A stretch of DNA of 64,000 nt from Escherichia phage UB. Below the pieces are notes generated by a model. The model saw only the letters and a program-made list of their open reading frames with translations, did not search any database and had not been told where the DNA came from. Shown here in pieces: positions 729 through 33,661 of the stretch. Location: sequence record MH383160; one strand, 5' to 3'. Within the stretch, counting starts at the first letter, position 1; the number at the start of each line of letters is the position of its first letter. The translations under genes and the position numbers were made by a program.

Positions 729-737
729 ATTTCATTC

Positions 738-2517: not shown

Positions 2518-2523
2518 ACAAAT

Positions 2524-5735: not shown

Positions 5736-5762
5736 ATCTTCTCCTGTCCTCTATTAAAAGCG

Positions 5763-5791
5763 ATTATAACACATCTAAATGCTACTGTAAA
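5763..5791 (-). promoter_or_regulatory. sigma70-like promoter
   Basis: minus strand TTTACA-N17-TATAAT with TG extension, between terminator and RBS of 5169..5735. Confidence 0.5.
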
Positions 5792-5799
5792 GACATAAA

Positions 5800-5822
5800 C
5801 ACAAAAAGACCCATAAGGGTCT
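5800..5822 (-). terminator. intrinsic terminator
   Basis: hairpin AGACCC-ATAA-GGGTCT directly after stop of 5823..6389, U-rich tail on minus strand (T-run also on plus strand). Confidence 0.5.
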
Positions 5823-6389: not shown

Positions 6390-6897
6390 AGAAATCTTTT
6401 TCTTCCAGAATATCCTTTAAACTAGGAAACTCTTCCATAATTTCTTCTATATCCGATTCTATGAAAAACCCTGATGGATTATCGTAGTTTTGTAACAGAT
6501 AACTGAAAGTAATAATGTAAAGAAGTTCATTAGGATCGTGAATTAAACTTAGCTGGAACATAGCTGATTCTAAATCGGATTCAGTACTAAGATCAACCCA
6601 ACGTGAATTTCTATAATCAATTCGTACTTGACTTGTATTTGGATTCCATGTGAAGCAATGTGTACCAATATGACCTATACAACCAACCCTTGTACTGTCT
6701 CCGGTATCAACACTGATATCAACAAATAGTTCAACACTGATATCGGATGATGTTACACGACCTTTTTTCAGAAATAAATCATTATCCTTACGAAATTGTT
6801 TGGATGAAAGAGTGTCAATGATGCACATCAATGTTTTTGCAAATGCAACACAATGACGAAATTCAAGCCTATGAAATTGGTAATCATTGATATTCAT
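6334..6897 (-). CDS. FQ-motif family protein (hypothetical)
   Basis: ORF track 187 aa; motif ESAMFQLSLIHD. Confidence 0.65.
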   Translation of the reverse strand: MNINDYQFHRLEFRHCVAFAKTLMCIIDTLSSKQFRKDNDLFLKKGRVTSSDISVELFVDISVDTGDSTRVGCIGHIGTHCFTWNPNTSQVRIDYRNSRWVDLSTESDLESAMFQLSLIHDPNELLYIITFSYLLQNYDNPSGFFIESDIEEIMEEFPSLKDILEEKDFYEDFRDLYDMHLELFKNG

Positions 6898-7436
6898 AAT
6901 TCAACCCCCAATATTTTATCAGCAATTGATATAACCTTATCATTGAATACATTACCAATCTCAATCCTTATATACATAGCAGGTGGAATCTTTCCTTGTA
7001 GTGAATAATATGTTTGTATACCTAAGTACTCATTATCTGATAATGAAAATTTGATTCTCTCCATATCAATGTCTGTTACTGGTAAATCAATCATTTCATA
7101 ATGGTAGTCAACGTTTTCAGTGTATATTTTATCGAAGTAATTTGAATAATCACTACTAATATAGATGCTATCATCACGAATAATCACTTTATAATCAGAA
7201 GGTTCAAATTTATCTTTAGAAGAAAAGAATGCATCATCTATCTTCTCTTCTCTTATACCGAATAACATTTTACCATCATATTTTACATCAAGAATACTAC
7301 CTAGTATATTAATGGTACAATGCTCATCAATATTATGACGTAAAGAACGAGTCTTGTATTTTGGGTTAATGAAAATTTTCATTAATTTTATACAAATGTC
7401 AGTAATGCATTTTACATTCTCATTTTCTATGTACAT
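6894..7436 (-). CDS. hypothetical protein
   Basis: ORF track 180 aa; 4-nt overlap coupling. Confidence 0.55.
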   Translation of the reverse strand: MYIENENVKCITDICIKLMKIFINPKYKTRSLRHNIDEHCTINILGSILDVKYDGKMLFGIREEKIDDAFFSSKDKFEPSDYKVIIRDDSIYISSDYSNYFDKIYTENVDYHYEMIDLPVTDIDMERIKFSLSDNEYLGIQTYYSLQGKIPPAMYIRIEIGNVFNDKVISIADKILGVEL

Positions 7437-7914
7437 TAAAAGCCCTCTTTAATTCTTTTACATTTTTAATGAATACTTTCATTGCAGAAATCTCAAAAGA
7501 TAATGTATTAAATTTGCAGTACTTTTTAAAGTACGACATTATGAATAACATTTTGAGTTCTTTTTCTGTGTAAATTAAACTATTTTGAAAGTAACTTTCT
7601 TCTGATAAATCATCAAGAAACGGATATAAAACTCCATTTGTTCTCAAGAACATGATACCTTCACTCCATGATCTAAATGAAAGGTAATCAGTCTTACCAC
7701 ATTCATATAAGGAGTTTATCATTCCATCAATCATTAAGGAGAACTCAATACTGTATCCTAATCTTTCACACTTGTATCTCTTATCTTCTTTCTTTGTAAT
7801 TACGAAGTGATGACCCAGTGAGTCTTTGTTATCGAAAATGAAATCAACTGTCTCTAAACACTCCTTAGCGAACTTCATAGTTTCTCTGTACTTTCGGTTC
7901 ATTAGTCTCTCCAA
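7420..7914 (-). CDS. FQ-motif family protein (hypothetical)
   Basis: ORF track 164 aa; motif EESYFQNSLIY. Confidence 0.65.
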   Translation of the reverse strand: MERLMNRKYRETMKFAKECLETVDFIFDNKDSLGHHFVITKKEDKRYKCERLGYSIEFSLMIDGMINSLYECGKTDYLSFRSWSEGIMFLRTNGVLYPFLDDLSEESYFQNSLIYTEKELKMLFIMSYFKKYCKFNTLSFEISAMKVFIKNVKELKRAFNVHRK

Positions 7915-8315
7915 ACTTTACCAGGGAAGTGTTTCTCGTAGTACTCATCATCACTTAACATATAATCAGGAGTTTCTACTTCTATGGTTTTGAAGATTGT
8001 TTCTGGAATGTGTGTGACTTTATTGGGTTGTACTTTATGTTCGCGTAAAACCTTCTGTATCGCTCCTAGACGTTGTAAATCGATACATGTAGGAAAGACT
8101 AAGCTGTACTGAAATAGCTCGTCGGGGGTCATTATAGACACATCCTTAGCTTGTTTGATTTTATTGTTGGCATCAATGAATATATCAAATCCTTGTACAG
8201 CATTATAGCTTACATAGGTTGTTTTATTTTTGTCAATAGGAGCACTTAAACGATATCCATATACCCCGTGTTGGTCAACAATGCATCGTTGCATAATTTT
8301 AATCATTTCGAACAT
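7902..8315 (-). CDS. FQ-motif family protein (hypothetical)
   Basis: ORF track 137 aa; motif PDELFQYSLVF. Confidence 0.65.
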   Translation of the reverse strand: MFEMIKIMQRCIVDQHGVYGYRLSAPIDKNKTTYVSYNAVQGFDIFIDANNKIKQAKDVSIMTPDELFQYSLVFPTCIDLQRLGAIQKVLREHKVQPNKVTHIPETIFKTIEVETPDYMLSDDEYYEKHFPGKVWRD

Positions 8316-8661
8316 AATTTACCTCGTATGTGTTATAATTCCACGCTTTAACACTATCCATTTGTATATCCTGAACTTCATGGAAATATTTAAGTACCTT
8401 CTGGTATTCCATTATTTCATATACATCTTCAGTATTGACAGTGCTCTCCTGAAACAATTCCTCTTCTGATAAAGTACTATAATCCGGGATTTTTATTTCA
8501 GAATATATCTCATTCATATATGAATCATTTTGGTAAATCTGTAGATAAAACTGATTATATTCAGGGATATAGGTTACGAAATGGTTCTTGTTGAATTCAT
8601 ATCTTGAAGCAAAGCATTCATTGCCATCCGTCATGTACTGAATTGTTTTCTTATTTTGCAT
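8299..8661 (-). CDS. FQ-motif family protein (hypothetical)
   Basis: ORF track 120 aa; motif EEELFQESTVN. Confidence 0.65.
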   Translation of the reverse strand: MQNKKTIQYMTDGNECFASRYEFNKNHFVTYIPEYNQFYLQIYQNDSYMNEIYSEIKIPDYSTLSEEELFQESTVNTEDVYEIMEYQKVLKYFHEVQDIQMDSVKAWNYNTYEVNYVRND

Positions 8662-9121
8662 TCAAATAATCCACGCATTTATAGTAGACTGCTAAATCTA
8701 AAAAGAATCGTTGATTGTATTTGTAATGATTAAGTAGTGCACCATAAAATAACATAGCATTAAGTACTTTTACATCATGAATACAAGAACCCTGAAAGTA
8801 CATTTCCTCTGACATGAAGACTAAATCATTATACGGAACAAATACTGCTTCTCTAAATGTATCAATATTAATCTTCAAATCAGACCCAGGGCAATATGAA
8901 ATGTATTCGGCTTTGTAATGAAAGTCATTATCATCAAAGTACTCCGCGTAGATTTGATTACCTCTACCATTAGTAAATGCTAGTCTTCCTTTAGATGAAC
9001 TGAACTCATCGTATTGAAACATACCACCAAAAGGCTTAGGACTTCTGAACTCCTTTGCAATGCGATAGATATTTTCTGTAAATTCTAAAACACCATAGTA
9101 ATCATATTCTGTAGTAATCAT
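8651..9121 (-). CDS. FQ-motif family protein (hypothetical)
   Basis: ORF track 156 aa; motif EEMYFQGSCIHD. Confidence 0.65.
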   Translation of the reverse strand: MITTEYDYYGVLEFTENIYRIAKEFRSPKPFGGMFQYDEFSSSKGRLAFTNGRGNQIYAEYFDDNDFHYKAEYISYCPGSDLKINIDTFREAVFVPYNDLVFMSEEMYFQGSCIHDVKVLNAMLFYGALLNHYKYNQRFFLDLAVYYKCVDYLNAK

Positions 9122-9594
9122 AAACCATTTTTCTCCAGGTACTCAATAATACAATCGACATTGTTCAGGTCCAAGTAGAAATGATCACTATCGGAATTTA
9201 GTTCATTTTTAAGGGCTGTTAAAATCACTGAACTGAAAACAATCCTCTCTGGATACACAGTACTGTACTGGAAGAACTCTTCTTCAGTGTTAATTACAAT
9301 CGTATTAAATGCTTCATTTATAAGAAGATGATTGTAGTATTTGAAATTATCTGAACTTGGAAAATGGTATGAAATAAAATCACCACTTGGTACTTCATCA
9401 AGTACTCTAATGCTACAAGTTGATTCATCTGAACTATAGAGTAACCCATCCATAAAGGAAAGGTATCCATTTCGTTTAATAACTTTATGTTCCCCCACGG
9501 AAAAATCTTCAGTAACATTCGCAAGGAATTTATAAACCCTGATAATGTCTTTTGCTATTTTTTGTGCATTGCTAAATGATAGGTCTTTGGACAT
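9118..9594 (-). CDS. FQ-motif family protein (hypothetical)
   Basis: ORF track 158 aa; motif EEEFFQYSTVY. Confidence 0.65.
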   Translation of the reverse strand: MSKDLSFSNAQKIAKDIIRVYKFLANVTEDFSVGEHKVIKRNGYLSFMDGLLYSSDESTCSIRVLDEVPSGDFISYHFPSSDNFKYYNHLLINEAFNTIVINTEEEFFQYSTVYPERIVFSSVILTALKNELNSDSDHFYLDLNNVDCIIEYLEKNGL

Positions 9595-9627
9595 TGTGAT
9601 ATAACCCTTTACAATTAATATAAAGAG

Positions 9628-9658
9628 ATTATATCACAAAGAATCGGAGGGTGTCAAG
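9628..9658 (-). promoter_or_regulatory. sigma70-like promoter (consensus hexamers)
   Basis: minus strand TTGACA-N18-TATAAT in 59-bp gap upstream of 9118..9594; -35 overlaps stop of upstream gene. Confidence 0.55.
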
Positions 9659-10190
9659 ATGGGTTGCGAAGTTCTACCATTTCTTTCCAAACTAATTGGT
9701 AATCTTCTAAGTCCAGATAGAAGTCTTCATTCCAGTGCTCATGAAAGTACTTATACATGAATAGAACTCCTAAATCGTATGCAGGAAACAATAATGATAG
9801 TTGAAAGTAGTATTCCTGATTTAAAACTATATCAATGAACTCTAATGTACGTATGCCACCTTTCGATGAACGTATCTCAATGTGTGAGGTATCCTTTATA
9901 CTGTAACACATGAAACCGCCTCTGAATTCTGGATCATATTCACATTCGAACTGCTCACTGTTGTTATAGAAATCTCTCCCACTTTCTTTATCTTTCGGTC
10001 TACGTACTGATACATGAATATTGTTATCACGGTACATTGAACGATTTAGTATTTTCAAACATTTGAACTTATTTTCTTTAATGAACTTGATAATATCAAT
10101 TATATCTTGTGCAGTACTGATAGCTGATTCGAATGTATCCAACTTAAGATGATTATATTGTGTTCCATTGTTCATTTTTTCATCTAACAT
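9654..10190 (-). CDS. FQ-motif family protein (hypothetical)
   Basis: ORF track ORF trimmed to internal ATG (10190) preceded by GAGGT RBS; motif QEYYFQLSLLF. Confidence 0.6.
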   Translation of the reverse strand: MLDEKMNNGTQYNHLKLDTFESAISTAQDIIDIIKFIKENKFKCLKILNRSMYRDNNIHVSVRRPKDKESGRDFYNNSEQFECEYDPEFRGGFMCYSIKDTSHIEIRSSKGGIRTLEFIDIVLNQEYYFQLSLLFPAYDLGVLFMYKYFHEHWNEDFYLDLEDYQLVWKEMVELRNPS

Positions 10191-10197
10191 ATAAACC

Positions 10198-10533
10198 TCA
10201 TAATTCATACATTTTTGATTTGAACTGCATATGACCACCTATTTCACATGGATAACAATTCATAATTTTGTTCAATAAAATCTGGTATTTTTTAATAACT
10301 TCTATATCAATTTTTATATTACTATTAAAAACTAATGATTCTTGAAATAATTCACCCTCGTCAAGTGAAGTAAAATCATTTATCTTCAACGGTATATTGT
10401 TGCATCGCAAGGAGAATGTATTTTCATCACGAATTAAAGTATAGAAATCATTATGTTTTTTATTATAATCAAATTTCACAAGTAGTAGTTTAATATGAGT
10501 AGCGTACATTACTTTCACTAATTCAGTCTTCAT
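10198..10533 (-). CDS. FQ-motif family protein (hypothetical)
   Basis: ORF track 111 aa; motif EGELFQESLVF. Confidence 0.65.
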   Translation of the reverse strand: MKTELVKVMYATHIKLLLVKFDYNKKHNDFYTLIRDENTFSLRCNNIPLKINDFTSLDEGELFQESLVFNSNIKIDIEVIKKYQILLNKIMNCYPCEIGGHMQFKSKMYEL

Positions 10534-10885
10534 AACGGAATAAAATTCTCCTGTACTGCTCCGGTCCAGTACTCAATCTCTTCACTGGATAATTATCAAA
10601 GATTCTTTTCATTTCTTTCTGGATTAAACATAAGAAATCAAAGTTACAATCGTACTTATTATCCCATACTAAACTTTCTTGGAATAACTCATCCTCTTGC
10701 ATTAGTGTAGTGTCAATTACATCTTCACGAACATAGCTATATACTTCATAGCTCTTGAAGCCATCTTCTGATAATTCTAATTCATATGCCGCCATATCAA
10801 ACATATCATCATGGTTTGTCTTCAATGATATTAAACAAGTAACTAATTTTTTAGTTGTATAGTATGTAATACTTAATGTGTTCAT
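10523..10885 (-). CDS. FQ-motif family protein (hypothetical)
   Basis: ORF track 120 aa; motif EDELFQESLVWD. Confidence 0.65.
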   Translation of the reverse strand: MNTLSITYYTTKKLVTCLISLKTNHDDMFDMAAYELELSEDGFKSYEVYSYVREDVIDTTLMQEDELFQESLVWDNKYDCNFDFLCLIQKEMKRIFDNYPVKRLSTGPEQYRRILFRYED

Positions 10886-10890
10886 TTGTT

Positions 10891-11493
10891 TTATACCTCA
10901 GTATAAAGCTTACAATAGCTTTCATCAAAATCACAAACACTTCTCAAGTACTGACACAGGTCAGTAAAAATATTTACATTTGCTATATATACATTATCAA
11001 ATTCTACTCGTTGAAAGAATGTATGCATAGAATTTGTAATATATCTCATTGCAGATTCACGTTCCATCGTTAAATCATTTGTGAACATTGCATCTTCATC
11101 AGTACTGACTAATTCAATATCAAATGATTGCATATATGGAATACTCTTTCCTAGGGCATAACTATCACCATATGATGCTTCTACTGCACCTTTAGAATAC
11201 ACCAATTGATATAAGTCCGAAATAGGGTTATAAAACGTGCGGCAAATTGAGGAACATAATTTATTATTCATCCAATAGAAAACCCTATTTGAATTACCGT
11301 CAAATGCTATACGCAATCCATCACCATCTAGAGTAATAATCCCATCCAGCATAAAAGAGAACTGAACTAATGCTTTTTCTAAGTCCATTCTTTTGTGATA
11401 AATGATTTCTTGCATATAGATAATATCATTTACTAATTTCTTAAAAAACAAATGCACATCTGCACTACAACATTTATTTGCATTTATTGGCAT
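10891..11493 (-). CDS. FQ-motif family protein, divergent (hypothetical)
   Basis: ORF track 200 aa; degenerate motif DEDAMFTNDLTM. Confidence 0.55.
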   Translation of the reverse strand: MPINANKCCSADVHLFFKKLVNDIIYMQEIIYHKRMDLEKALVQFSFMLDGIITLDGDGLRIAFDGNSNRVFYWMNNKLCSSICRTFYNPISDLYQLVYSKGAVEASYGDSYALGKSIPYMQSFDIELVSTDEDAMFTNDLTMERESAMRYITNSMHTFFQRVEFDNVYIANVNIFTDLCQYLRSVCDFDESYCKLYTEV

Positions 11494-12044
11494 AATAGTT
11501 CCTTATACATATTATGTACTTTACAAATCTCATTATAGTATTTCATATCAATATCATTTGTATTAAAAACGGAAACAGACAATACCGCTAAATCATCAAT
11601 GAAGTAATTATTATCGGCGTACTCTTTTAACTTATTGAACATATAGATGCATTTTATACTTAATTCATCATGCAACACACTGTTCTGAAAAATATTCTCT
11701 TCAGTATTAGGAGATAAGTAATCTTCAATTATATACGATAAACTACTATCGCAATCTTTATAGATTGAAATTGATGGATGTAATGTGTCATACATTACAC
11801 TAAACAGATCACCGTCATATGTGGATATTAAACTATTATTGGAAACAGTAGGATGATAATATTTCAGTACTGAAAACTTTGAACAATCAGTGCAGTAAAA
11901 ATGATCCATCCCTCGACGACTTTCGTATGAGAATAGTTTACTTGTATATTCAATCCCTTTGGTGCGACGGATTGTTTCATGCATTTCTGCACATTGCATT
12001 AAAATTACCATACGTTCAAACGCAAGATCTAAATCATCGTACAT
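11484..12044 (-). CDS. FQ-motif family protein (hypothetical)
   Basis: ORF track 186 aa; motif EENIFQNSVLHD. Confidence 0.65.
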   Translation of the reverse strand: MYDDLDLAFERMVILMQCAEMHETIRRTKGIEYTSKLFSYESRRGMDHFYCTDCSKFSVLKYYHPTVSNNSLISTYDGDLFSVMYDTLHPSISIYKDCDSSLSYIIEDYLSPNTEENIFQNSVLHDELSIKCIYMFNKLKEYADNNYFIDDLAVLSVSVFNTNDIDMKYYNEICKVHNMYKELLCQ

Positions 12045-12225
12045 AACGGATATCCTTCTTCAACGAATTAATATATTCCAAAATAACTTGTTCCTGATAT
12101 TGAGTTCCCAAGTACATCAGGACTTTCAACTCTTTGAATTCAGTACTATATGAGTCTGTTTGCATCATTCTAGTAGAATATATATTGAATAGTTTAGCAA
12201 TGTCATTTTGGTCTATTATTTTCAT
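12034..12225 (-). CDS. LGT-QE family small protein (hypothetical)
   Basis: ORF track 63 aa; core YLGTQYQEQ. Confidence 0.55.
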   Translation of the reverse strand: MKIIDQNDIAKLFNIYSTRMMQTDSYSTEFKELKVLMYLGTQYQEQVILEYINSLKKDIRYVR

Positions 12226-12421
12226 ATATTCTCTTCTGGATTAGTTCCTGTAAGTGCTGAATATAACCCTTCATTGCAACATCCTGTTTGTTAGAGCCAA
12301 CGAAGAACAAGAGCTTAAAGTCATGGTAATCCATTTTTGGTTTAGTAGTGAACCATATGTCCCACACTGCACTCACAGTTCTCATGTATTCAATTCGATT
12401 AAATGTTTTTGAATACTTCAT
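12203..12421 (-). CDS. LGT-QE family small protein, divergent (hypothetical)
   Basis: ORF track 72 aa; core FVGSNKQDV. Confidence 0.5.
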   Translation of the reverse strand: MKYSKTFNRIEYMRTVSAVWDIWFTTKPKMDYHDFKLLFFVGSNKQDVAMKGYIQHLQELIQKRIYENNRPK

Positions 12422-12935
12422 CGATGTTCATCGCCAATAAGTTAATATACAAATTACTGTTAAATGCTATCTGCAATTCCATATAGAACTGAATGATAGC
12501 ATAGTCAGGGTCAGTACACGATAGTTGAAAGCACTGTTCTTCAAATGAATTGTAATTGTACTTAGGGATGTGAATTTCACGCTTCAAATCAGGTTGACCC
12601 CACTTCATCGCGTACACACCAATGTTATTGTTCTTTTTCCTTTTCTTAAATGTTAATTGTTGAATATTTCCTGCGTCATCCAGGAAAATAGTATTATTCG
12701 ACACAGGTGCACCAATAGAAAACAATGATGTATCAATTACGTGTGTCGCACGCACCTCACACTTCTGGAATGCCCCAGTACCCTGTAATACATAATGAAA
12801 ATTGTACTTCTCATTAACAACAGTACTAGGATCGATTAAACCAGTACTGCATTTTTTGAGTACTGGTACAATGGTGCGAATCTTTTTTGATAAATCTTGT
12901 AATGCATCAAAGTCATTGATGTTAACTTTCATCAC
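12399..12935 (-). CDS. FQ-motif family protein (hypothetical)
   Basis: ORF track 178 aa; motif EEQCFQLSCTD. Confidence 0.6.
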   Translation of the reverse strand: MMKVNINDFDALQDLSKKIRTIVPVLKKCSTGLIDPSTVVNEKYNFHYVLQGTGAFQKCEVRATHVIDTSLFSIGAPVSNNTIFLDDAGNIQQLTFKKRKKNNNIGVYAMKWGQPDLKREIHIPKYNYNSFEEQCFQLSCTDPDYAIIQFYMELQIAFNSNLYINLLAMNIDEVFKNI

Positions 12936-13381
12936 TCGAATGTAGCCTCTTCAGTAGTAACAAAATTGGTTAGTGTATCCAGTTCAGCAGTGTCAAGATA
13001 AAATACATCTAGTACAGATTTCTGATATATTACACTGAATGTGCATAGATTGTCAAGTGTTCCTTGTTCATAAACAGTACTACCCTGGAAGTACCCTTCT
13101 TCAGTACTCAGGGATAAAATATCTGAAATTTTAAAAGATTCTTCAGTTGCATGTCTTTCTATATTAACTATATTGCCGTTTCGGTTCAATGAAATATAAT
13201 CGTATGCTAACTCAATTAGACTATAATTATCCGCATTAGTGTCAAATAAAGCGACAATTTTTCGTCTCAATCTCTCATCGTGATCATGGTTTTCATCAGC
13301 TAAGTATTCAGGATTTTCTTTGAAGAATTTAACGACGCGTAGAATATCATTTGCTTTCTTGATTGCACTTTCGTAACTCAT
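12932..13381 (-). CDS. FQ-motif family protein (hypothetical)
   Basis: ORF track 149 aa; motif EEGYFQGSTVY. Confidence 0.65.
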   Translation of the reverse strand: MSYESAIKKANDILRVVKFFKENPEYLADENHDHDERLRRKIVALFDTNADNYSLIELAYDYISLNRNGNIVNIERHATEESFKISDILSLSTEEGYFQGSTVYEQGTLDNLCTFSVIYQKSVLDVFYLDTAELDTLTNFVTTEEATFE

Positions 13382-13686
13382 AATAATTCAACCACTCCAT
13401 CTCTAAAGTACATATAACTACCACCATTGGATACTGTGAATTCTATTGTCCCCAATAATATATTATATTTTTTTATTTCACATGTAGTACTTGTAGTGTA
13501 AGGCTCACCATCTCCTAAGTACATTGACATATGACATAGAACTTTTCTACCAGCATATTTCTCTTCAAACGATTGTTCAAAACTATGCATAATTTGATTT
13601 AAAGCTGAAATGTAATTAATAAAGTCAGGTATTTCTGTCAATGAATTATAAACCGTACAAAGTGAATCAAATTCATTTTTAGTCAT
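13378..13686 (-). CDS. hypothetical protein
   Basis: ORF track 102 aa; 4-nt overlap with upstream gene. Confidence 0.5.
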   Translation of the reverse strand: MTKNEFDSLCTVYNSLTEIPDFINYISALNQIMHSFEQSFEEKYAGRKVLCHMSMYLGDGEPYTTSTTCEIKKYNILLGTIEFTVSNGGSYMYFRDGVVELL

Positions 13687-14000
13687 TATATTTCTATCTC
13701 AATGTAATCCTGTGTGATTAAATAATCCCAATGATACTTCACCTGCTTTTGTAATTCAATTAACGTAAAGAAGTTGATCGATTTATCCCATACGAGCGAT
13801 TCCTGGAAAATAAATGATTCATGTTCATCGTAATAATCACACTCTAAAAAATCAGGTATATATTCACTATCGTGAATGTATTCAACAAACGAACTAGCTT
13901 GGCATTTCTTTACTACTAGTAATAATGAATTATCATGATCAAACAGATACAATAAACTAATTTCACCAGGGACGTACTGAACACTGAATAAGTTTTTCAT
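13686..14000 (-). CDS. FQ-motif family protein (hypothetical)
   Basis: ORF track 104 aa; motif ESFIFQESLVWD. Confidence 0.65.
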   Translation of the reverse strand: MKNLFSVQYVPGEISLLYLFDHDNSLLLVVKKCQASSFVEYIHDSEYIPDFLECDYYDEHESFIFQESLVWDKSINFFTLIELQKQVKYHWDYLITQDYIEIEI

Positions 14001-14449
14001 TCTATACCTTCTGGATCTTTACGAAGTTCTTCGAAATCCAAATAAAATCGAGGACAGTTAACACTCTTTAAGTACCACATAATAACTAATGCTTCAAGTA
14101 CTTCATCATCGTAAACAGTACTGTTTTGGAAGTAATACTCTTCACTATCCCACGGACCTTCCAGTACTTCATAATTCAAAATTAATGGTTTTTTGCGATT
14201 AATAAAACGAATGCTACCATTTTCAACATAACTAATAAATTCTGCATCTCTATTGTATTCAGAAAACGATATAGGACTATTGGAATTCAACCCAAGAATA
14301 ACCCTTACACCAACGGAGTTATTATACATTTCATCCTTGTAGTAGTTGCCGTTCTCGGCTTTGTACACTTCTTTGAACTTTCCTGCCTTTATATCGTCAA
14401 AGTATCCATGTAGTTCTTTTGCTTTTTCAAGAGCACTTTGTAATGACAT
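13997..14449 (-). CDS. FQ-motif family protein, MSLQSALEKAK subgroup
   Basis: ORF track 150 aa; GPWDSEEYYFQNSTVYD...IMWYLKS; one of 5 tandem paralogs. Confidence 0.7.
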   Translation of the reverse strand: MSLQSALEKAKELHGYFDDIKAGKFKEVYKAENGNYYKDEMYNNSVGVRVILGLNSNSPISFSEYNRDAEFISYVENGSIRFINRKKPLILNYEVLEGPWDSEEYYFQNSTVYDDEVLEALVIMWYLKSVNCPRFYLDFEELRKDPEGIE

Positions 14450-14915
14450 TACCTTCTCCTACAGTATTCTCTACATATTCATAATCAAAATAGAAACTAC
14501 TGGAGTCAATACTTTTGAAATACCACATAATTACAATAACATCTAATTCTTCTTCATTGTACAACGTACTATTCTGGAAGTAATATTCTTCACTATCCCA
14601 CGGTCCTTCCAGTACTGAATAAGGAATGATAGTGTCATCAGCATCACTATCTGTGTTGTAGATGGTAATATCTTCATTACGGCAATAACTAATGTACTGA
14701 TTGTACATATGATATTCACAGTTATCACTGTCACCAGTATCAGTGTGCAGTACTAATGTTTCTGCACATATCTCGGACTCGTCATAATCGTCACGGTCTT
14801 TTACAAAAAATTCAGTATCAGATGTTTTATACACCCCAGGTACTGAACCTTCCTGTACCATAATCATGTACTCATGAATCTTCTTTGCTTCTTTCAATGC
14901 ACTTTGTAACGACAT
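14427..14915 (-). CDS. FQ-motif family protein, MSLQSALEKAK subgroup
   Basis: ORF track 162 aa; GPWDSEEYYFQNSTLYN...IMWYFKS. Confidence 0.7.
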   Translation of the reverse strand: MSLQSALKEAKKIHEYMIMVQEGSVPGVYKTSDTEFFVKDRDDYDESEICAETLVLHTDTGDSDNCEYHMYNQYISYCRNEDITIYNTDSDADDTIIPYSVLEGPWDSEEYYFQNSTLYNEEELDVIVIMWYFKSIDSSSFYFDYEYVENTVGEGNVITKCS

Positions 14916-15358
14916 TACAAATCCCCTGTACTTAAATATTCACATGCTCCCCAGTCAAGAAAAAATGGTTCAAACTTCAATTCCTTAAAGTACCACAAAA
15001 CAACCAAGGAATCAAGCATTTCTTGGTTAAAAATAAGACTCTGTTGGAAGTAATACTCTTCAGTACCCCACGGGCCATCAAGTACCCCGAAGTCAACAGG
15101 TGTATTTGATGTGTCAAACGTAATCTTAGTACCTGGAATATATACAAAAAAACTAGTATATTGACTACATGAAGAGTACTGTATAGTATTGTCTTTATCC
15201 TGTCCCATAAGTAAAATATCATCAGAGTATGTCTTTATACCTGATAGATAATACTCATCACCAAATGCACTTACTTTATCACCATAGAACCCACTTTTTA
15301 TGTTATCGTGGAAGTGATGTATTCTGTGTGCTAGTTCAAGTGCACTTGCTAAACTCAT
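14915..15358 (-). CDS. FQ-motif family protein, MSLQSALEKAK subgroup
   Basis: ORF track 147 aa; GPWGTEEYYFQQSLIFN...VLWYFKE. Confidence 0.7.
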   Translation of the reverse strand: MSLASALELAHRIHHFHDNIKSGFYGDKVSAFGDEYYLSGIKTYSDDILLMGQDKDNTIQYSSCSQYTSFFVYIPGTKITFDTSNTPVDFGVLDGPWGTEEYYFQQSLIFNQEMLDSLVVLWYFKELKFEPFFLDWGACEYLSTGDL

Positions 15359-15825
15359 ATATCCTCTTTAATAACTCGTAGTAGATCCAAGTCCAAATAG
15401 AAGCTAGGACAATCTGTATTATTAAAGTACCACAGAATGACAAGCTTGTCAAGTACATCTTCCTCGTAGATAGTATTCTGCTGGAAGTAGTACTCTTCAC
15501 TTCCCCAGTCATTATCCAGTACTGAATACGGAAGATGTTTCTCTGCTGCACCAGATATAATGTCAGAATCTTGTATTAAAATATCAGCATCACGACAGAA
15601 GTACATGTAATTATCTTCCAAATTAACATCACACCCATTGAGTGTTGTTTCAGAAGAATCTAAGTTTTCTTCATACATGTGAATGTACTCACTACTGTCA
15701 TCGTATCTCATTCGACAATAAGATTTACCTTCCTTGAATAGATATCCATTAAGACAATTTGCTACAATTTCTTTGCTGCATAAATCAATTAACTTCGCAA
15801 TCTCTAATGCTCTTTCTAAACTCAT
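15355..15825 (-). CDS. FQ-motif family protein, MSLQSALEKAK subgroup
   Basis: ORF track 156 aa; NDWGSEEYYFQQNTIYE...ILWYFNN. Confidence 0.7.
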   Translation of the reverse strand: MSLERALEIAKLIDLCSKEIVANCLNGYLFKEGKSYCRMRYDDSSEYIHMYEENLDSSETTLNGCDVNLEDNYMYFCRDADILIQDSDIISGAAEKHLPYSVLDNDWGSEEYYFQQNTIYEEDVLDKLVILWYFNNTDCPSFYLDLDLLRVIKEDI

Positions 15826-15826
15826 T

Positions 15827-16318
15827 TCAACCCCTGTTAATACCGTTATCTACAGTTTTCTTTACGTATTTGTAATCGAAATAGAAGTTCCCAGAACCAA
15901 TACTTTTAAAGTACCACATAATTATAATAACATCAAGTACTTCATTATCATATACAGTACTTTGTTGGAAGTAATACTCTTCACTATCCCACGGACCTTC
16001 CAGTACTTCACTCGGAATTATAATGTCATTGGAATCGCTGTCAGTACTGTTGATGGTATCTGTATCATTAATATAGACCATGTACTCATTATGCATATTA
16101 ATGAAGCATTCATAATCATTAGGGTCGGTATCTAGTATGCACGTTTCTGTATCCAGTACGCACGTTTCTGTATCTGAGCAGTCATTATAAAGGAGGTTAT
16201 CCGGTACATAATATTGAGTACTTGTGTCTTTGAAAACACCGTAAACTGAACCTTCTTTTGCCATATTCATGTACTCATGAATCTTCTTTGCTTTTTCCAA
16301 TGAACTCTGTAATGTCAT
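15827..16318 (-). CDS. FQ-motif family protein, MSLQSALEKAK subgroup
   Basis: ORF track 163 aa; GPWDSEEYYFQQSTVYD...IMWYFKS; internal short tandem repeat ETCVLDTETCILDT. Confidence 0.7.
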   Translation of the reverse strand: MTLQSSLEKAKKIHEYMNMAKEGSVYGVFKDTSTQYYVPDNLLYNDCSDTETCVLDTETCILDTDPNDYECFINMHNEYMVYINDTDTINSTDSDSNDIIIPSEVLEGPWDSEEYYFQQSTVYDNEVLDVIIIMWYFKSIGSGNFYFDYKYVKKTVDNGINRG

Positions 16319-16327
16319 TTTATAATC

Positions 16328-16687
16328 TCATATATTGAAATAATAATTATTCGTTCTTGATGGGGATGGATTAAATACGTTTTCTTTTTCAAATCTCTTC
16401 ATTTCATTTTGCAAAGAAACCATTTCTTCAAATGTACAGGAGTACTTATTCTTATCAAACACTAATGCAGCCTGAAATAGTTCGCCATCGTCCAGTACTG
16501 TATAATCTATAAGACTCTCAGATTCATAGTCATAGTCGTCATGTGATACATGAATAAATTTAAAACAAGAATCTTTGTAATGCATATATAAACTCAACTC
16601 ATGTTCCGAGTCGCCCTTAATAAGATTACAGCACAAGTCCCATCCTTTAGGTAACTTATAATAGTACATAGAATAATCATATGTCAT
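16328..16687 (-). CDS. FQ-motif family protein, ELFQxxLVFDK subgroup
   Basis: ORF track 119 aa; DGELFQAALVFDKNKYSCTFEEM. Confidence 0.7.
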   Translation of the reverse strand: MTYDYSMYYYKLPKGWDLCCNLIKGDSEHELSLYMHYKDSCFKFIHVSHDDYDYESESLIDYTVLDDGELFQAALVFDKNKYSCTFEEMVSLQNEMKRFEKENVFNPSPSRTNNYYFNI

Positions 16688-17043
16688 TCTTGAATTCCTA
16701 AATTGAATTTGTATTCTTGATTAATACTTGCATTGGGTTTATGCAAAGCAGCATACTCTTTCATTTCATTTTGTATTGCAATAACTTCTTCAAATGTACA
16801 CAAGTACTTCTTATCAAATACTAATGATTCTTGGAATAGTTCTGCGGTATCCATTAATGTATAGTCCGGCATATCTTGGTGTGGATACTGTAATGAACTG
16901 TAATCAATGAATGTAAATTTACCCTGAGTGTAATGAATATACTCATTCGCACTGTGCATTAAATCACCTTTGTTTAAATTACAAAAGTACTGATAACTGT
17001 GCTTGAAAGTATGTACTGATATTAAAAAATCAAATTCCATCAC
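16684..17043 (-). CDS. FQ-motif family protein, ELFQxxLVFDK subgroup
   Basis: ORF track 119 aa; TAELFQESLVFDKKYLCTFEEV. Confidence 0.7.
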   Translation of the reverse strand: MMEFDFLISVHTFKHSYQYFCNLNKGDLMHSANEYIHYTQGKFTFIDYSSLQYPHQDMPDYTLMDTAELFQESLVFDKKYLCTFEEVIAIQNEMKEYAALHKPNASINQEYKFNLGIQE

Positions 17044-17417
17044 TCTTCTCCTAGATTAAAAAATTTCCAGAAATCGGCCTCACCAGTACTGCACCAGATA
17101 TCTATACATTCCCTGTGAATACATTTAATTCTACGCTGTAATTCAATCATCTCTTCTAATGTACAGATGTACTTCTTATCAAATACTAATGCCTCCTGGA
17201 ACAGTGCAGCATCATCAAGTACTGTATAGTCCGGCATCTCGATAGATATCCCATGAAACCCAGTACTAAAATCCATCAAATAAAAGTCAGCATTCCAGTA
17301 CTTTAAAATCTTGTCCCTAGCGTAGTTTAAATCACCCTTGTATAAGTTAGAGTGCGTAACTAACTCACCAGTGTACATCCATGTCCTTGCACAAAATTCA
17401 TTATATTTTATTTCCAT
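17040..17417 (-). CDS. FQ-motif family protein, ELFQxxLVFDK subgroup
   Basis: ORF track ORF trimmed to ATG 17417 (MEIKYNEF) by length comparison with the two paralogs; DAALFQEALVFDKKYICTLEEM. Confidence 0.6.
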   Translation of the reverse strand: MEIKYNEFCARTWMYTGELVTHSNLYKGDLNYARDKILKYWNADFYLMDFSTGFHGISIEMPDYTVLDDAALFQEALVFDKKYICTLEEMIELQRRIKCIHRECIDIWCSTGEADFWKFFNLGEE

Positions 17418-17614
17418 CTTAATCTCTACTATAATTAATAAGGTAAACTCCAATATAAGGAGCACGTTGCGGGGGCGGGGTATTTTTTGTTTCAGGAAAC
17501 ATGAACTGTACTCTGAAAAACACAATATAAAACTTTATATTAAACATATACCTTAGCATGTTTTTCAGCGGAAATTTTTTTGACCCCCCTGCGGCCTGTA
17601 AAAATGAAACGTCT

Positions 17615-17824
17615 CTATTTATTCAGCCTAGAAAGCTTGATTTCTTCAATCCTTTTCATCGCACAAAGCCTTCGACTCGTCATCTCGTATAAATTCAATA
17701 CTCGGTGTACCGTATTATCTACACTCTGAACCAAATATGTATCCTTCAAAATCAAATCCATCATGTATTCAAAACCCTTAATACTATGCGAACTTAACAC
17801 TTCCGGCTCTTCAAACGTAATCAT
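17615..17824 (-). CDS. hypothetical protein
   Basis: ORF track 69 aa. Confidence 0.45.
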   Translation of the reverse strand: MITFEEPEVLSSHSIKGFEYMMDLILKDTYLVQSVDNTVHRVLNLYEMTSRRLCAMKRIEEIKLSRLNK

Positions 17825-18041
17825 AATTCCAATCCCCTATCCCATCTAACCTTCTAAGATATCTTGCGTAAATTATTTCGAAATATCTGTGCAACGAAAT
17901 TACGGATTGCTCATAATCATCATTCCTGTACATTGTGCATGTAAGAAAATCATTTAACCCAAAATCTAAACTGCACTTGAACTTCTCCTTTGCAATATCA
18001 CTATTACTTGCACTTTTCATAATAAACCCTTTGTACCGCAT
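17811..18041 (-). CDS. hypothetical protein
   Basis: ORF track 76 aa. Confidence 0.45.
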   Translation of the reverse strand: MRYKGFIMKSASNSDIAKEKFKCSLDFGLNDFLTCTMYRNDDYEQSVISLHRYFEIIYARYLRRLDGIGDWNYDYV

Positions 18042-18174
18042 TGGTGTACTGTGAACTCAGCACCACTAATAGGTAATCTATATTGTAAGCACGATTTCCT
18101 CGTTGACTAGCACGGCTGGAATAAAGAATATTATCCACATATGTATTGAACTGATCTTCAAATAACTCTTTCAT
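18004..18174 (-). CDS. small hypothetical protein
   Basis: 56-codon ORF (MKELFEDQFN...) filling the 18042-18195 gap; below ORF-track length cutoff; weak RBS. Confidence 0.3.
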   Translation of the reverse strand: MKELFEDQFNTYVDNILYSSRASQRGNRAYNIDYLLVVLSSQYTNAVQRVYYEKCK

Positions 18175-18195
18175 CAGCATTATCCCATCACATAA

Positions 18196-18747
18196 TCATA
18201 CATTAACAACTTTATCGATGTAATCTTCTAACATATCAATATATCTGGTATTGGTTCTAACTAAAAGGTATGCAAATCCAGAGAACTCATGTGTATAATG
18301 CTTTACAGCGTACATACAACGAAGCTTATCATTGTCATACATTGTACTGTACTGAAACAAACTCTCGTCTGATAGCTCTAATAACGCTTGGGCTTCACTT
18401 CTCGTGAACTTCATAGGGTCATGTACTGCATCACAAAAACAAACCTGTGTCTCGCTATTGAAACCCTGTGATAGATATATACCTTCACACTCTGAACGCA
18501 CCGATACTGCATTATAACTATGTGTTGCCCCCATCATATCTGAACTCAAAACTAAAATCAACCCATTTTTATTTTTAATCAACAAATCTGACTTAAGGGA
18601 TTTGATCTCCGTATGGGAAATATCACCAAATCTTCCTGGGACTTCAAACTTATCAACGTTGTATACAATCTTTTGTACTTGCTCTTTTAAACGCTTAATT
18701 GCACTTCTGTCTTTTTCTAATGTATCTAATAAACTCATTGAACTCAT
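18196..18747 (-). CDS. FQ-motif family protein (hypothetical)
   Basis: ORF track ORF trimmed to internal ATG 18747 with AAGGA RBS; motif DESLFQYSTMYD. Confidence 0.6.
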   Translation of the reverse strand: MSSMSLLDTLEKDRSAIKRLKEQVQKIVYNVDKFEVPGRFGDISHTEIKSLKSDLLIKNKNGLILVLSSDMMGATHSYNAVSVRSECEGIYLSQGFNSETQVCFCDAVHDPMKFTRSEAQALLELSDESLFQYSTMYDNDKLRCMYAVKHYTHEFSGFAYLLVRTNTRYIDMLEDYIDKVVNV

Positions 18748-18757
18748 TGTGCTTTCC

Positions 18758-19102
18758 TTACATATTTGTACCGAACAAAACGGAACTTTGAATGCCATTA
18801 ATCGACACTTCATGTACATATATATTTTGTCTGAACAAAGGAACTAATTGAACTAAACTCGTTTGCATAATAATATGCATATGTACATTGTCATATGCCG
18901 TTTCGTATTGGAAACGTGCAGCTTCATCTTCTATGAAATTCGGAACTTGGACTGGATTCTCAAAATTTGTCCTTGTACTGAACTGTACATCATTGTCCTG
19001 TACCTTAATACCATATGAATTATCATTGTTATCAACTACATCAAATTCAATTAAACTACCATCTTTACTGACGTTTACTATATAAACCGAAAATCGACTC
19101 AT
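18758..19102 (-). CDS. FQ-motif family protein, divergent (hypothetical)
   Basis: ORF track 114 aa; motif DEAARFQYETAYD. Confidence 0.55.
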   Translation of the reverse strand: MSRFSVYIVNVSKDGSLIEFDVVDNNDNSYGIKVQDNDVQFSTRTNFENPVQVPNFIEDEAARFQYETAYDNVHMHIIMQTSLVQLVPLFRQNIYVHEVSINGIQSSVLFGTNM

Positions 19103-19614
19103 AAACCTATTTCCTCTAAATCTTTGACAAATGTATCATAATCCGATAATGACAAAAATATGTCTGTACTGATGTTTTGACGTAATGTATTAAACAAATT
19201 ATGTACCTGTAATAAATCAGGTGCATAAATCAGGGATTGCTGGAAATACGATTCTTCTGTATCTAATATATCCCTGCACTCAATTTCACGAACTCGTTGG
19301 TATATTGAATTTAATAATACATTTTCATCTTTGAGCATTGGAAGGTATCGGATGTACATGTGCTCCATCAACTCATCCTGGATTGAACCCCTGAACTGCA
19401 ACACGTATTCAAAACACATCACTACATCTTGTAGGTAATTGGCACTGTAATTATTGCTGTAAACAATCTTATGACTTCTGAACTCATCATCATTTCTGAA
19501 CCAATTGTCACCTACTTTGGTGTACTTATGACTAAGCTTCCCATCCTCCAACGCTCGAATGAACTTCATAATGTTAATTGCAAAATCATATGAATGATGC
19601 TTGTGTTGATGCAT
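19099..19614 (-). CDS. FQ-motif family protein (hypothetical)
   Basis: ORF track ORF trimmed to ATG 19614 with GAGGT RBS 6 nt upstream; motif EESYFQQSLIY. Confidence 0.65.
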   Translation of the reverse strand: MHQHKHHSYDFAINIMKFIRALEDGKLSHKYTKVGDNWFRNDDEFRSHKIVYSNNYSANYLQDVVMCFEYVLQFRGSIQDELMEHMYIRYLPMLKDENVLLNSIYQRVREIECRDILDTEESYFQQSLIYAPDLLQVHNLFNTLRQNISTDIFLSLSDYDTFVKDLEEIGL

Positions 19615-19621
19615 TTTTACC

Positions 19622-19816
19622 TCAATTCTGTCCGAAAAAATAACCAAAATGTTTAAAGCAAGAAAGCATTACTATGTTCATCACTCTATCATCAAATTCA
19701 TCTTGTGTTTCTGCACATAATGTTTCACAGATATTCAAATGTAATAATTCAAGCTGGAAACTGTCGGTGAACCAATCAAACTTACGGTATTTTTGTTTAA
19801 CATCAACTGTAAGCAT
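19622..19816 (-). CDS. hypothetical protein
   Basis: ORF track 64 aa; abuts neighbours. Confidence 0.45.
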   Translation of the reverse strand: MLTVDVKQKYRKFDWFTDSFQLELLHLNICETLCAETQDEFDDRVMNIVMLSCFKHFGYFFGQN

Positions 19817-19817
19817 A

Positions 19818-20441
19818 CTATATATCCAACCCTTTTACAACATCTACGAAATGTTCAAACACTTCTTTTGAAAAATAACCACCTTCACAAAAAAGCATAC
19901 TAAACGGTGGCAGCATGTCCGATAACTCTTTAGCTAAATTGATTTCTGCTCTTAACTCTTGAACATCAATGATATCATGTACTAAAGATAATTGAAACAT
20001 GAATGCATCTACATCTTCATTCATTTCTGAATTGTAATATAACTCTTCAGGGAATTTGTCGGTTTCGTAATAATAAAAAACTTTATTGTTGAACACACCA
20101 CTAATAGGAACATCATTTTCATCTTTCTTTGAAATGTTTGTTTCCCATGACTCTATATTATTAGGAACAAAAAAATCATAGGCTGACTTTGAACCCTGTA
20201 CTGAATCCAACTTTATTCCATAATATTCCGTATCCATGTATTTCTGCTGTAATGTAATACCACGTGTACTGACATTCACTTGGAATATATCATCTTTATC
20301 TGGAACACTAAATGGAATACATAACACTGAATTCTCAGGGTATTTGGCAATGAATGCATCCAGCACTTTATTAAGCACTGGAATGGCAATTTTACTGTAC
20401 TGCATCAAATCATACATTTTAATTCTGGTCATATCATTCAC
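19818..20441 (-). CDS. FQ-motif family protein (hypothetical)
   Basis: ORF track 207 aa; motif DAFMFQLSLVHD. Confidence 0.65.
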   Translation of the reverse strand: MNDMTRIKMYDLMQYSKIAIPVLNKVLDAFIAKYPENSVLCIPFSVPDKDDIFQVNVSTRGITLQQKYMDTEYYGIKLDSVQGSKSAYDFFVPNNIESWETNISKKDENDVPISGVFNNKVFYYYETDKFPEELYYNSEMNEDVDAFMFQLSLVHDIIDVQELRAEINLAKELSDMLPPFSMLFCEGGYFSKEVFEHFVDVVKGLDI

Positions 20442-20973
20442 CTGTGTATGTTTTCACCCTTAGCGATTCAAAATCCCATACATCACTGATTGTACCATTG
20501 TGCCTGTAATCATAATATTCTACTAATACATTATACAATAACTTCAACGATACAAATTCATGATTCCACGGAGCTTTATTGTCATGAACACATTTGGTGA
20601 TATAAGGTATAATATATAAACTAAACAACACTAATGGTGAATGTATACATTGCATTTGAAAATATTCTTCTTCTTGCATACAATGTTCAGGAATAATTAG
20701 ATCATAATGTGTCTCAAATAAATGTAAACCTATTGTGGTTTTTTTCGTATCACATGCGTACCATATTGTACTATCCGAAATAAATGGAATGATACCATTA
20801 TTGTTTGCAATGTACATCATATGGTAAGAGCGATTTGTCTTGTTAAATATCTCGATACTTTCGATATTACTACAAATCATGTATTCAAGGCAATCAATGA
20901 TCTTATCTTTAAATGTACCAATTTCATTGAATGACATTGCTTTCTGTACTTTTGATACTGTTGTACTGCTCAT
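20434..20973 (-). CDS. FQ-motif family protein (hypothetical)
   Basis: ORF track 179 aa; motif EEEYFQMQCIH. Confidence 0.65.
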   Translation of the reverse strand: MSSTTVSKVQKAMSFNEIGTFKDKIIDCLEYMICSNIESIEIFNKTNRSYHMMYIANNNGIIPFISDSTIWYACDTKKTTIGLHLFETHYDLIIPEHCMQEEEYFQMQCIHSPLVLFSLYIIPYITKCVHDNKAPWNHEFVSLKLLYNVLVEYYDYRHNGTISDVWDFESLRVKTYTGE

Positions 20974-21512
20974 ATGTTCTCCTTAAAAAAATCCAAATAC
21001 TCTTCATTGAAAGCATATGTATCATCTTTTTTGTTATGCACCACATAATCATAAAGAGCTATGAATGCAGGGATTATGATCTTACATGATTTATTATTGT
21101 ATTTGTACTGCTCCAAATCAACGGTGTTCAATTTAGCAATAAGCATAGCAGCAAAGATATCTTCATGGCGGTGTACTGTGCTGTACTGAAAATACTCATC
21201 CTCTCCAATATCGGGATGATATAACGGTATAACCAAATTATTACGAATTGACATTTTATATTTTTGTAATGCAGCTAAATGCATGAACCACAATCTATCT
21301 TCATGGAAAGATGGAAAAATAATTTTGTCTGTGCTAATAAAAATTTCTTCATTTCGATTATTTGTCACAAGAGGTGCATACATTTTAATTTTTGCAGATT
21401 TAATAATTAAATTAAAAATATAATGAATCTTATGAACTGCACTTGATGCATCTTCGTATGTACTTGGGATTATGAAACTCACTATATGTTCTCCTTTAAA
21501 ATGAATACACAT
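20970..21512 (-). CDS. FQ-motif family protein (hypothetical)
   Basis: ORF track 180 aa; motif EDEYFQYSTVH; true start may be GTG at 21482 after AAAGGAG RBS because ATG 21512 lies inside the promoter -10. Confidence 0.6.
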   Translation of the reverse strand: MCIHFKGEHIVSFIIPSTYEDASSAVHKIHYIFNLIIKSAKIKMYAPLVTNNRNEEIFISTDKIIFPSFHEDRLWFMHLAALQKYKMSIRNNLVIPLYHPDIGEDEYFQYSTVHRHEDIFAAMLIAKLNTVDLEQYKYNNKSCKIIIPAFIALYDYVVHNKKDDTYAFNEEYLDFFKENI

Positions 21513-21539
21513 GATAACAGCTTTGGTCTTCTATGTCAA
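21511..21539 (-). promoter_or_regulatory. sigma70-like promoter
   Basis: minus strand TTGACA-N17-TATCAT immediately downstream of terminator. Confidence 0.45.
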
Positions 21540-33412: not shown

Positions 33413-33661
33413 AGGGACTCCATTAAAAATAATATCAATCCTATAATATACGATTCGTATAAAAAATCAATAACATTTTATTCGTAATACCCCTTTATCG
33501 AAGTCGCTAAGGTTACCCGCCCTTTAGCCCCCTACGCATTTTGCCATAGTCCAATCCCTTTTATTTCAAAAAAGTCAAGGGATTACCTATGCATTTTTTT
33601 AACGCATAATTTTAAAAACGCCTTGACTTTTTTCTGAATCAGTACTAGATCCCTTTACGCA
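33413..33661 (-). promoter_or_regulatory. non-coding control region upstream of the LGT-QE array
   Basis: 249-bp gap with 13-bp inverted repeat AAAAAAGTCAAGG / CCTTGACTTTTTT (33567..33633), four CTACGCATT-like repeats and a candidate TTGATT-N16-TATTAT promoter. Confidence 0.3.

Follow-up and report, generated by a model that had tools for sequence, protein, structure and literature searches.

At the concatemer junctions of phages T7 and T3, the terminal repeat is duplicated during processing, a hairpin intermediate is formed, and the junction carries an RNA polymerase pause site; the T7 repeat is 160 bp long, and T7 uses its own single-subunit RNA polymerase. A far longer repeat is found in phage T5 (10.1 kb), with small early genes transcribed inward from the left end and a non-coding inner end that carries the injection stop signal (bioRxiv 10.1101/866236). 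In Twort-like staphylococcal phages, 12-bp inverted repeats bracket the long terminal repeat/non-redundant genome (PMC7596081). Among jumbo phages, a direct terminal repeat (DTR) of ~20 kb has been derived from coverage for G17 (PMC6563267), one of 20,668 bp by PhageTerm for Sharanji (PMC11895373), and the termini of fEgEco12 were mapped by PhageTerm and confirmed by restriction digests (PMC13070987). In the literature searched, the long terminal repeats of ~350-kb phages are reported as length only, and neither the anatomy of their ends nor the duplication of a 20-kb repeat is described.

We examined a 249-bp intergenic gap (33413-33661) within a window of 64,000 nucleotides, the whole stretch of DNA analysed. 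Based on comparison of the 4-kb stretch around the gap, which 41 phage records match at 80-99% identity, the window belongs to an Asteriusvirus jumbo coliphage (PBECO4/121Q/phAPEC6/G17 group, genomes of ~350 kb), the well-matching records being E. coli or Salmonella jumbo phages of this same group. Every gene around the gap lies on the minus strand, so the gap is to be read as the reverse complement (a caret marks the cut in the sequences below). Read in this direction, it lies downstream of a 69-aa gene (33662-33871, minus strand; phrog_17833) and upstream of the LGT array (27939-33412, minus strand), which comprises about 25 overlapping paralogous small genes of 65-96 aa with the motif LGTNYQ. 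The initial annotation regarded the gap as a probable operator or regulatory region controlling this whole array. The reading that we favour, with a probability of roughly 0.6 when the roles proposed for its elements are included, is that the gap represents the junction between a ~20-kb DTR and the unique genome, such that the supposed control region is mostly a genome-end feature.

The virion DNA end was assigned by homology with relatives that are 92-100% identical in the gap, and almost certainly lies between 33509 and 33510. At least seven records of relatives (G17, vB_Ec-M-J (EcMJ), fEgEco12, E9.1, CRJP21, WPEC3 and WPEC5) start, end or annotate their DTR at the one nucleotide corresponding to this position. 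The G17 record carries both repeat copies, opening with AGGTTACCCGCC at the equivalent of 33510 and closing with ...CTCTGCCTACT at that of 53219, and the 20,993-bp repeat of fEgEco12 begins with AGTAGGCAGAGG and ends with ...GGGCGGGTAACCT at the same two nucleotides. The feature annotated as 'Direct Terminal Repeats' at 1..21525 of EcMJ ends inside the homologous gap at the same place, while a distance of exactly 152 nt separates the stop codon of the 69-aa gene from the end of the E9.1 and CRJP21 records and from the start of those of WPEC3 and WPEC5. Where a record holds both DTR copies, the terminal copy of the gap stops at the position homologous to 33510; sequence on one side of the cut is present at both genome ends in the relatives' records, sequence on the other side occurs once, and a specific conserved sequence lies at the cut itself. 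From these record ends, the window holds one collapsed DTR copy of 19,710 bp (33510-53219) with early genes transcribed on the minus strand. The gap is divided into a 152-nt non-coding DTR tail (33510-33661), holding a long inverted repeat (IR) and four ACGCAT-type repeats, and 97 nt of unique DNA (33413-33509), holding the array promoter and Shine-Dalgarno sequence (SD). The DNA end in the window tail reads ..GGGTAACCT^TAGCGAC.., and the predicted virion ends are 5'-AGTAGGCAG... and ...GGGTAACCT-3'. The 69-aa gene has homologues that are likewise the last DTR gene in Klebsiella phage fENko-Kae01 (hereafter Kae01), Salmonella phage Munch, EJP2 and A4, each followed by a gap of 230-264 nt. The RaK2 homologue is a paralogue whose surroundings differ (the next gene follows after 9 nt), so it could not be used to place a right edge.

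DTR boundaries are a known kind of feature, and two relatives already have this one annotated. The internal anatomy of the boundary, consisting of blocks at fixed spacing, a hairpin and an inverted TAGYG at both borders, was not found in the literature searched and appears undescribed. The analysis provides the position of the cut to the nucleotide, the conserved blocks and the shared border motif, together with predicted ends for RaK2, A4, EJP2 and Turkey5. The defined end blocks make end formation directly testable, and the end sequences help to orient and annotate the many records opened at arbitrary points.

In organisation, we consider the T5 repeat to be the nearest analogue. Both are long DTRs (here about 20 kb) with small early genes transcribed inward from the left end, and in both the inner end is non-coding, contains inverted and direct repeats, and is better conserved than neighbouring genes. 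The T5 region, however, spans 1.6 kb and contains paired DnaA boxes within IRs, whereas the tail identified here is ten times shorter, and a search allowing up to one mismatch found no DnaA box of the T5-type injection stop in 33413-33661 or 51584-53492. Two-step injection is not known for Asteriusvirus-type phages. Also unlike T5, with which we found no sequence similarity, the window phage has its large repeat-rich non-coding region at the left end of the DTR, opposite to the tail. This region of ~1.9 kb (51584-53492) straddles the left DTR edge and contains ~20 copies of the palindromic sequence TTCAGTACTGAATCAT.

Alignment of the gap across eight Asteriusvirus sequences, including Turkey5 (68% identical over the gap), PBECO4 and BF17, revealed a right-end cut-site block, GCGGGTAACCT^TAGCGACTTCGA (33498-33520, minus strand), in which 11 nt inside and 12 nt outside the repeat (23 nt in all) flank the cut between 33510 and 33509. 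This block is invariant in the eight sequences, except that EcMJ and BF17 have one extra T at the cut, and is retained in Turkey5 and, despite different downstream DNA, in PBECO4 and BF17. Also near-invariant are AGGGATTGGACTATG and a promoter of the form TTGACT-N16-TAWWAT, while the rest of the gap diverges. Blastn homology to the window ends 12-19 nt past the cut in PBECO4, BF17 and Salmonella SD phages; in the former two it picks up again at the -35 box, and an inserted 366-nt gene (locus 1023-1388) separates the conserved promoter from the LGT array. The core CT^TAGC is kept in A4, EJP2 and Kae01/Munch, and a scan of IMG/VR with the cut-site block returned 121Q as its sole match. The cut falls in the 3' arm of a small GC-rich IR that straddles it, GCTAA(A)GG - GCGGGTAA - CCT^TAGC (33506-33528, minus strand; 8-nt spacer), which the extra T makes a perfect 8/8 in EcMJ and which has counterparts in EJP2 (CTAA(A)GGG/CCCT^TAG) and Kae01 (AAGGC/GCCT^T).

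Further inside the repeat, we identified two additional conserved blocks, namely the 12-mer GATTGGACTATG (33545-33556, minus strand), which is unique in the window and ends 35 nt before the cut, and AGGTAATCCCTTGAC, which comprises the 3' arm of the long IR and its 5' flank. In an ungapped alignment anchored at the cut, the 12-mer has an identical register in the window, Turkey5 and Kae01, EJP2 possessing CAAGACCTATG at this same register, while the register of AGGTAATCCCTTGAC is the same or differs by one nucleotide in EJP2 (CCCTTAAC) and Kae01 (GGTTGAC). Kae01 belongs to a different genus, and its PhageTerm repeat (1..19736) ends in the gap at ...CATGCCT^TAGCCACC, 145 nt past the stop codon and 39 nt before a TTGACA-N17-TATACT promoter, with CCT^TAGC at the end and the elements in the same order as in the window. 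Neither the 12-mer nor the long IR was found to have a counterpart at the left DTR edge. With chances that we judge to be about even, the arrangement AGGTAATCCCTTGAC - N16 - GATTGGACTATG - N35 - cut may represent end-formation signals, that is, a cis-acting site that would be read by an end-forming nuclease or terminase.

At the left DTR edge (53194-53226, plus strand), record ends place a terminal hairpin-capable IR (reverse complement AGTAGGCAGA-GGAAG-TCTGCCgTACT) that ends at 53219 and is followed outside by TAGTGGC; the junction in the window reads ...CTGCCTACT^TAGTGGCATAT. This junction is conserved in A4, Turkey5 and RaK2 (genus Alcyoneusvirus), and reads ...GAAGATA^TAGYG... in Kae01 and EJP2. 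In both genera with mapped termini, the left end opens with a hairpin-capable IR at nucleotide 1, and the packaged DNA is directly flanked at either end by TAG(C/T)(G/C), with the two copies inverted relative to each other, giving the border layout 5'-...CTA^genome^TAG...-3'. By homology, TAGYG is also found outside the ends of RaK2, A4 and EJP2, and it is the only motif common to both DTR edges. The ends of RaK2, A4, EJP2 and Turkey5 can be predicted from the conserved junctions, with right edges at CT^TAGC; a 30-nt match in RaK2 (JQ513383.1, ~224,788-224,817) to the left junction (ACT^TAGTGGCATAT..AGTACT) predicts its left edge at 224,814^224,815 of that record. The marking of both long-repeat borders by short sequences in inverted orientation is reminiscent of Twort-like phages and suggests symmetric recognition by the end-forming machinery, although the shared motif here is only ~5-7 nt (TAGYGRC), lies just outside the packaged ends, and occurs in unrelated Gram-negative jumbo myoviruses. 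Side by side with these features, TGATTAC(A/T)TTTGAT-type repeats with a 10-bp period occur on both sides of the left cut at 53219^53220 (53132-53165 and 53342-53375). Also observed was an iteron-like array with an 8-bp period (CGTCTAGCC / CGTTTAGCC / CATCTAGCC ...; 52319-52470), located ~750-900 bp inward from the left DTR end; it may bind a protein involved in replication or packaging.

Duplication of a terminal repeat by the classical model of staggered nicks and strand displacement requires inverted symmetry at the two borders. The inverted TAGYG outside both edges fits this model: at each DTR border a nick would fall after 5'-GYCRCTA^, the two being on opposite strands and staggered, and strand-displacement synthesis from them would duplicate the 20-kb repeat. 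We offer this as an inference drawn from a 5-7 nt motif, which presupposes that the PhageTerm positions are nucleotide-exact. Like T7 and T3, these phages have fixed ends and a terminal repeat that needs to be duplicated from a single concatemer copy, and beside the repeat end they possess a hairpin-forming sequence that may be associated with a transcription stop or pause.

This sequence is the perfect 13-bp IR with a ~40-bp spacer reported in the initial annotation, which we recovered as described, with arms AAAAAAGTCAAGG (33568-33580) and CCTTGACTTTTTT (33621-33633) complementary at 13/13 positions and exactly 40 nt between them. Of 2000 dinucleotide-shuffled versions of the 249-nt gap, just 2 contained a perfect IR of 13 bp or more. 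Across the 64-kb window, 18 perfect IRs measure 10 bp or more (spacers of up to 60), and this one is joint longest among them. The proposed search for it elsewhere, run within the window, found the 13-mer at no other place, nor were other hairpins of the A-tract/stem/T-tract type detected across the window. Folding of the transcribed strand indicated a compound hairpin (33568-33633, minus strand) in which the outer IR (33633-33621/33580-33568) encloses a nested 9-bp hairpin (33609-33601/33595-33587) with arms UUAUGCGUU/AAUGCAUAG, preceded by A6 and followed by T6. The IR starts 28 nt past the stop codon of the 69-aa gene. As RNA, the sense strand folds at -23.6 kcal/mol (z -5.0) versus -17.5 for the antisense strand, a difference of 6 kcal/mol owed to G-U pairs; the DNA fold has z -4.2, and the fold z-scores of the window hairpin span -3.7 to -5.0.

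In 5/5 lineages, the stretch from the stop codon to the 12-mer folds into a long compound hairpin, with differing sequences and z-scores of -1.9 to -5.4. The partner of the conserved 3' block CCCTTAAC in EJP2 is a distant 5' arm, GTTAcGGG, just past the stop codon, and one covarying pair was identified, C-G in the window (GTCAAGG/CCTTGAC) and T-A in EJP2. The arm core GTCAA/TTGAC is itself conserved in sequence across genera, while the spacing of the arms varies by lineage (40, 23 and 9 nt). In place of an IR of the window type, Turkey5 possesses ATGCAT-N10-ATGCAT, a hairpin with T6 on its 3' side; the A4 equivalent has an A run there and no T run. At this locus Turkey5 (PQ471516.1, ~1640-1835, minus strand) also contains a ~80-nt tandem duplication of the end of the 69-aa gene and the downstream hairpin.

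In its position past the stop codon and its flanking A and T tracts, the hairpin resembles the intrinsic terminators and RNase III-type processing hairpins of phage early operons, and in its two stems separated by an internal loop it resembles T7 RNase III sites. The core stem, GUCAAGG/CCUUGAC, is GC-rich (4/7 G-C pairs) and followed by U6, as in a terminator, but the 40 nt between the outer arms, partly taken up by the inner 9-bp hairpin, far exceed the short loop (about 3-8 nt) of canonical examples. Clear terminators of the same phage are short GC-rich hairpins, such as GGCGGGATCAGTTCCCGCC+T6 near 38,400, and the hairpin was called as a terminator neither by a simple scan of the window nor by ARNOLD in the G17 annotation. 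Rfam returned no match in the window at gathering scores, with only sub-threshold chance hits in 33300-33800 at E up to 5, and a tRNA/tmRNA search found none. Promoters overlapping the IR were also considered and rejected: the TTGACT arm as a sense-strand -35 box has no -10 box at 16-18 nt, GATTGG occurring there instead; an antisense TTGACT-N17-TAGATC is missing the invariant final T; and, checked by eye, sigma32, sigma54 and sigma28 patterns gave no fit at the IR.

Four (C)ACGCAT-like repeats had also been noted in the gap, and all four are present: CCTACGCATT (33531-33540), CCTATGCATT (33586-33595), AACGCATAA (33601-33609) and TTTACGCATT (33654-33663). They do not constitute one family. Two of them form the arms of the inner 9-bp hairpin nested in the long IR, and the other two belong to direct repeats located 123 nt apart that flank the hairpin, one (AATGCGTAAAGGGAT; 33649-33663, minus strand) starting within the stop codon of the last DTR gene and the other (AATGCGTAGGGGGCT; 33526-33540, minus strand) ending 16 nt before the cut. 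Kae01 carries another 15-mer (AATTTTTACCTWAGT) repeated at the two equivalent positions, the second copy ending 17 nt before its cut. The motif AATGC[GA]TA is locally enriched, with 3 of its 13 occurrences on both strands of the window falling in the gap.

Beyond the cut, only the last ~60 nt of the gap correspond to the array promoter. A sigma70-type promoter was predicted by promoter scan and conservation at 33443-33470 (minus strand), with the -35 box TTGATT (33470-33465), a 16-nt spacer and the -10 box TATTAT (33448-33443), and array transcription is predicted to start near 33436. An SD, GGAG (33421-33418), precedes the ATG of the first LGT gene (33412-33410; together 33410-33421, minus strand), placing promoter and SD 30-60 nt upstream of this gene, and the promoter elements begin 39 nt beyond the cut. 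The initial annotation had seen only a weak candidate promoter here, which understates it: TTGATT-N16-TATTAT matches the sigma70 hexamers at 9/12 positions with a spacing in the accepted range of 16-18 nt, most relatives have TTGACT as their -35 box, and the position is kept in 8/8 aligned relatives (TTGACT-N16-TAWWAT), including those with a different first gene. In Kae01, the promoter described above lies at the same place. The proposal of a control region thus survives in this conserved promoter and SD, and fails with respect to the IR and ACGCAT repeats, which provide no operator there. Members of the array that were tested match phrog_4148 (function unknown) with no Pfam hit, and no Pfam DNA-binding domain was found in the proteins neighbouring the gap.

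The array promoter belongs to another class than those of the early DTR cassettes (TTGACA-...AGTACTG-TATAAT-AGTTTACAT-GC hairpin-SD), and the array may therefore be timed differently; nothing ties such timing to the IR. Most DTR genes (34764-51163, e.g. 36737-36820 and 39582-39669) were found to possess a cassette composed of TTGACA-(AGTACTG)-TATAAT-AGTTTACATCAAG, a GC-rich 5'-UTR hairpin (GGGGAGA..TCTCCCC), an SD and ATG, reminiscent of the promoter-early-stem-loop (PeSL) cassettes of T4.

What the IR contributes to this junction is less firmly indicated than the position of the cut. We conclude from its sequence context that it would be part of the DTR-end module, with roles in genome-end formation and probably as a transcript-end hairpin, and not an operator of the array. 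On the sense transcript, where it most likely acts, it might serve as a terminator, a pause site, or a 3'-protecting or processing hairpin, and would bring early DTR transcription to a halt some 60 nt short of the DNA end, leaving the array insulated and dependent on its own promoter. Action on RNA, which we hold at somewhat less than even odds, is favoured by the start 28 nt past the stop codon, the A6 and T6 flanks and the more stable sense fold; the 40-nt loop, the absence of a call by ARNOLD or the simple scan and the A run in A4 argue against a canonical terminator. Conversely, the sequence-conserved GTCAA/TTGAC core and the register of the 3' arm with the cut point to a role at the level of DNA or protein more than to one on RNA only. 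An IR acting solely on DNA might extrude as a cruciform, fold on a displaced strand like the hairpin proposed for T7 concatemer processing, or present two inverted sites to the terminase small subunit or nuclease. Such a role would suit the fixed distance between the 3' arm block and the cut, an arm core (AAGTCAAG/TTGACTT) common to Asteriusvirus and Kae01 with GAGTCAA/TTGACTC in A4, the DNA fold (z -4.2) of an element unique in the window, and the small hairpin-capable IRs right at the cut at both genome ends. Yet Turkey5 retains the cut site, the 12-mer and the promoter having lost the IR, which indicates that the IR is not indispensable for end formation; the variable arm spacing is awkward for a dimeric protein site, the G-U pairs clearly stabilise the sense RNA over the antisense, and the left edge is without an IR counterpart. 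We regard a purely DNA-level role as rather unlikely, yet a DNA-level role in end formation as a serious rival. Returning to the DTR-end module, a more specific model, put forward tentatively and with well under even odds, is that the last ~100 bp of the DTR (AGGTAATCCCTTGAC - N16 - GATTGGACTATG - N35 - CCT^TAGYG plus hairpin) would constitute the cis-acting end-formation site of RaK2/Asteriusvirus-type jumbo phages, where a nuclease nicks after 5'-GYCRCTA on opposite strands 20 kb apart, strand displacement duplicates the repeat, and a transcript-stopping hairpin is coupled to the process, as with pausing at the T7 junction.

The operator proposed initially, in which the IR and repeats would bind a repressor or activator of the whole LGT array, could draw on a perfect and statistically unusual IR upstream of the array with flanking direct repeats, and on a promoter unlike the standard early cassette, such that separate regulation is possible. 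We nevertheless consider it highly improbable. The nearest IR arm (33568) lies 98 nt upstream of the -35 box (33470), with the DNA end between them, and as part of the DTR the IR has a second copy at the far right genome end with no array after it. Nor is it conserved together with the promoter: Turkey5 keeps the promoter without the IR, EJP2 keeps it with a stem built on a different, distant 5' arm, and PBECO4 and BF17 keep the IR where the sequence between the cut-site block and the -35 box, as well as the first downstream gene, differ. Furthermore, the 3' arm keeps its spacing to the cut and not to the promoter. The IR and repeats might otherwise be functionless, either relics of decayed LGT-type gene starts or local duplications in a fast-evolving spacer. 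Consistent with such an origin, ACGCAT is the reverse complement of the ATGCGT start (Met-Arg, as in MRILTK) of the first two LGT genes, and the tandem duplication in Turkey5 demonstrates that the spacer is plastic. Decayed starts are thus a possible source of the ACGCAT repeats, but leave unexplained both the register with the cut and the analogous 15-mer of Kae01, which is different in sequence and repeated at two equivalent positions. Since the IR is also perfect and significant against shuffled sequence, all five lineages have retained hairpins here even as the sequence changed, and the conserved blocks stand in exact register with the cut, we judge a functionless origin improbable.

Two further features were observed. 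AGTACT, with the consensus (C)AGTACT(G), is the commonest hexamer of the window, with 262 copies where base composition predicts about 22. Coding and non-coding DNA both contain it; it is wholly absent from 17298-25012 and from 28897-33640, the latter covering most of the LGT array. One copy of this genome-wide AGTACT(GAATCA) motif, AGTACTGATTCA (33635-33646, minus strand), lies in the DTR tail and is kept in Turkey5, fEgEco12 and A4; a literature search for the motif in phages returned nothing relevant. Finally, a GC-rich hairpin, AGGCCGCTAGAGAGCGGCCT, is located at 33896-33915 between a 154-aa gene and the 69-aa gene, with no T run on the transcribed strand, and may serve processing or stabilisation instead of termination.
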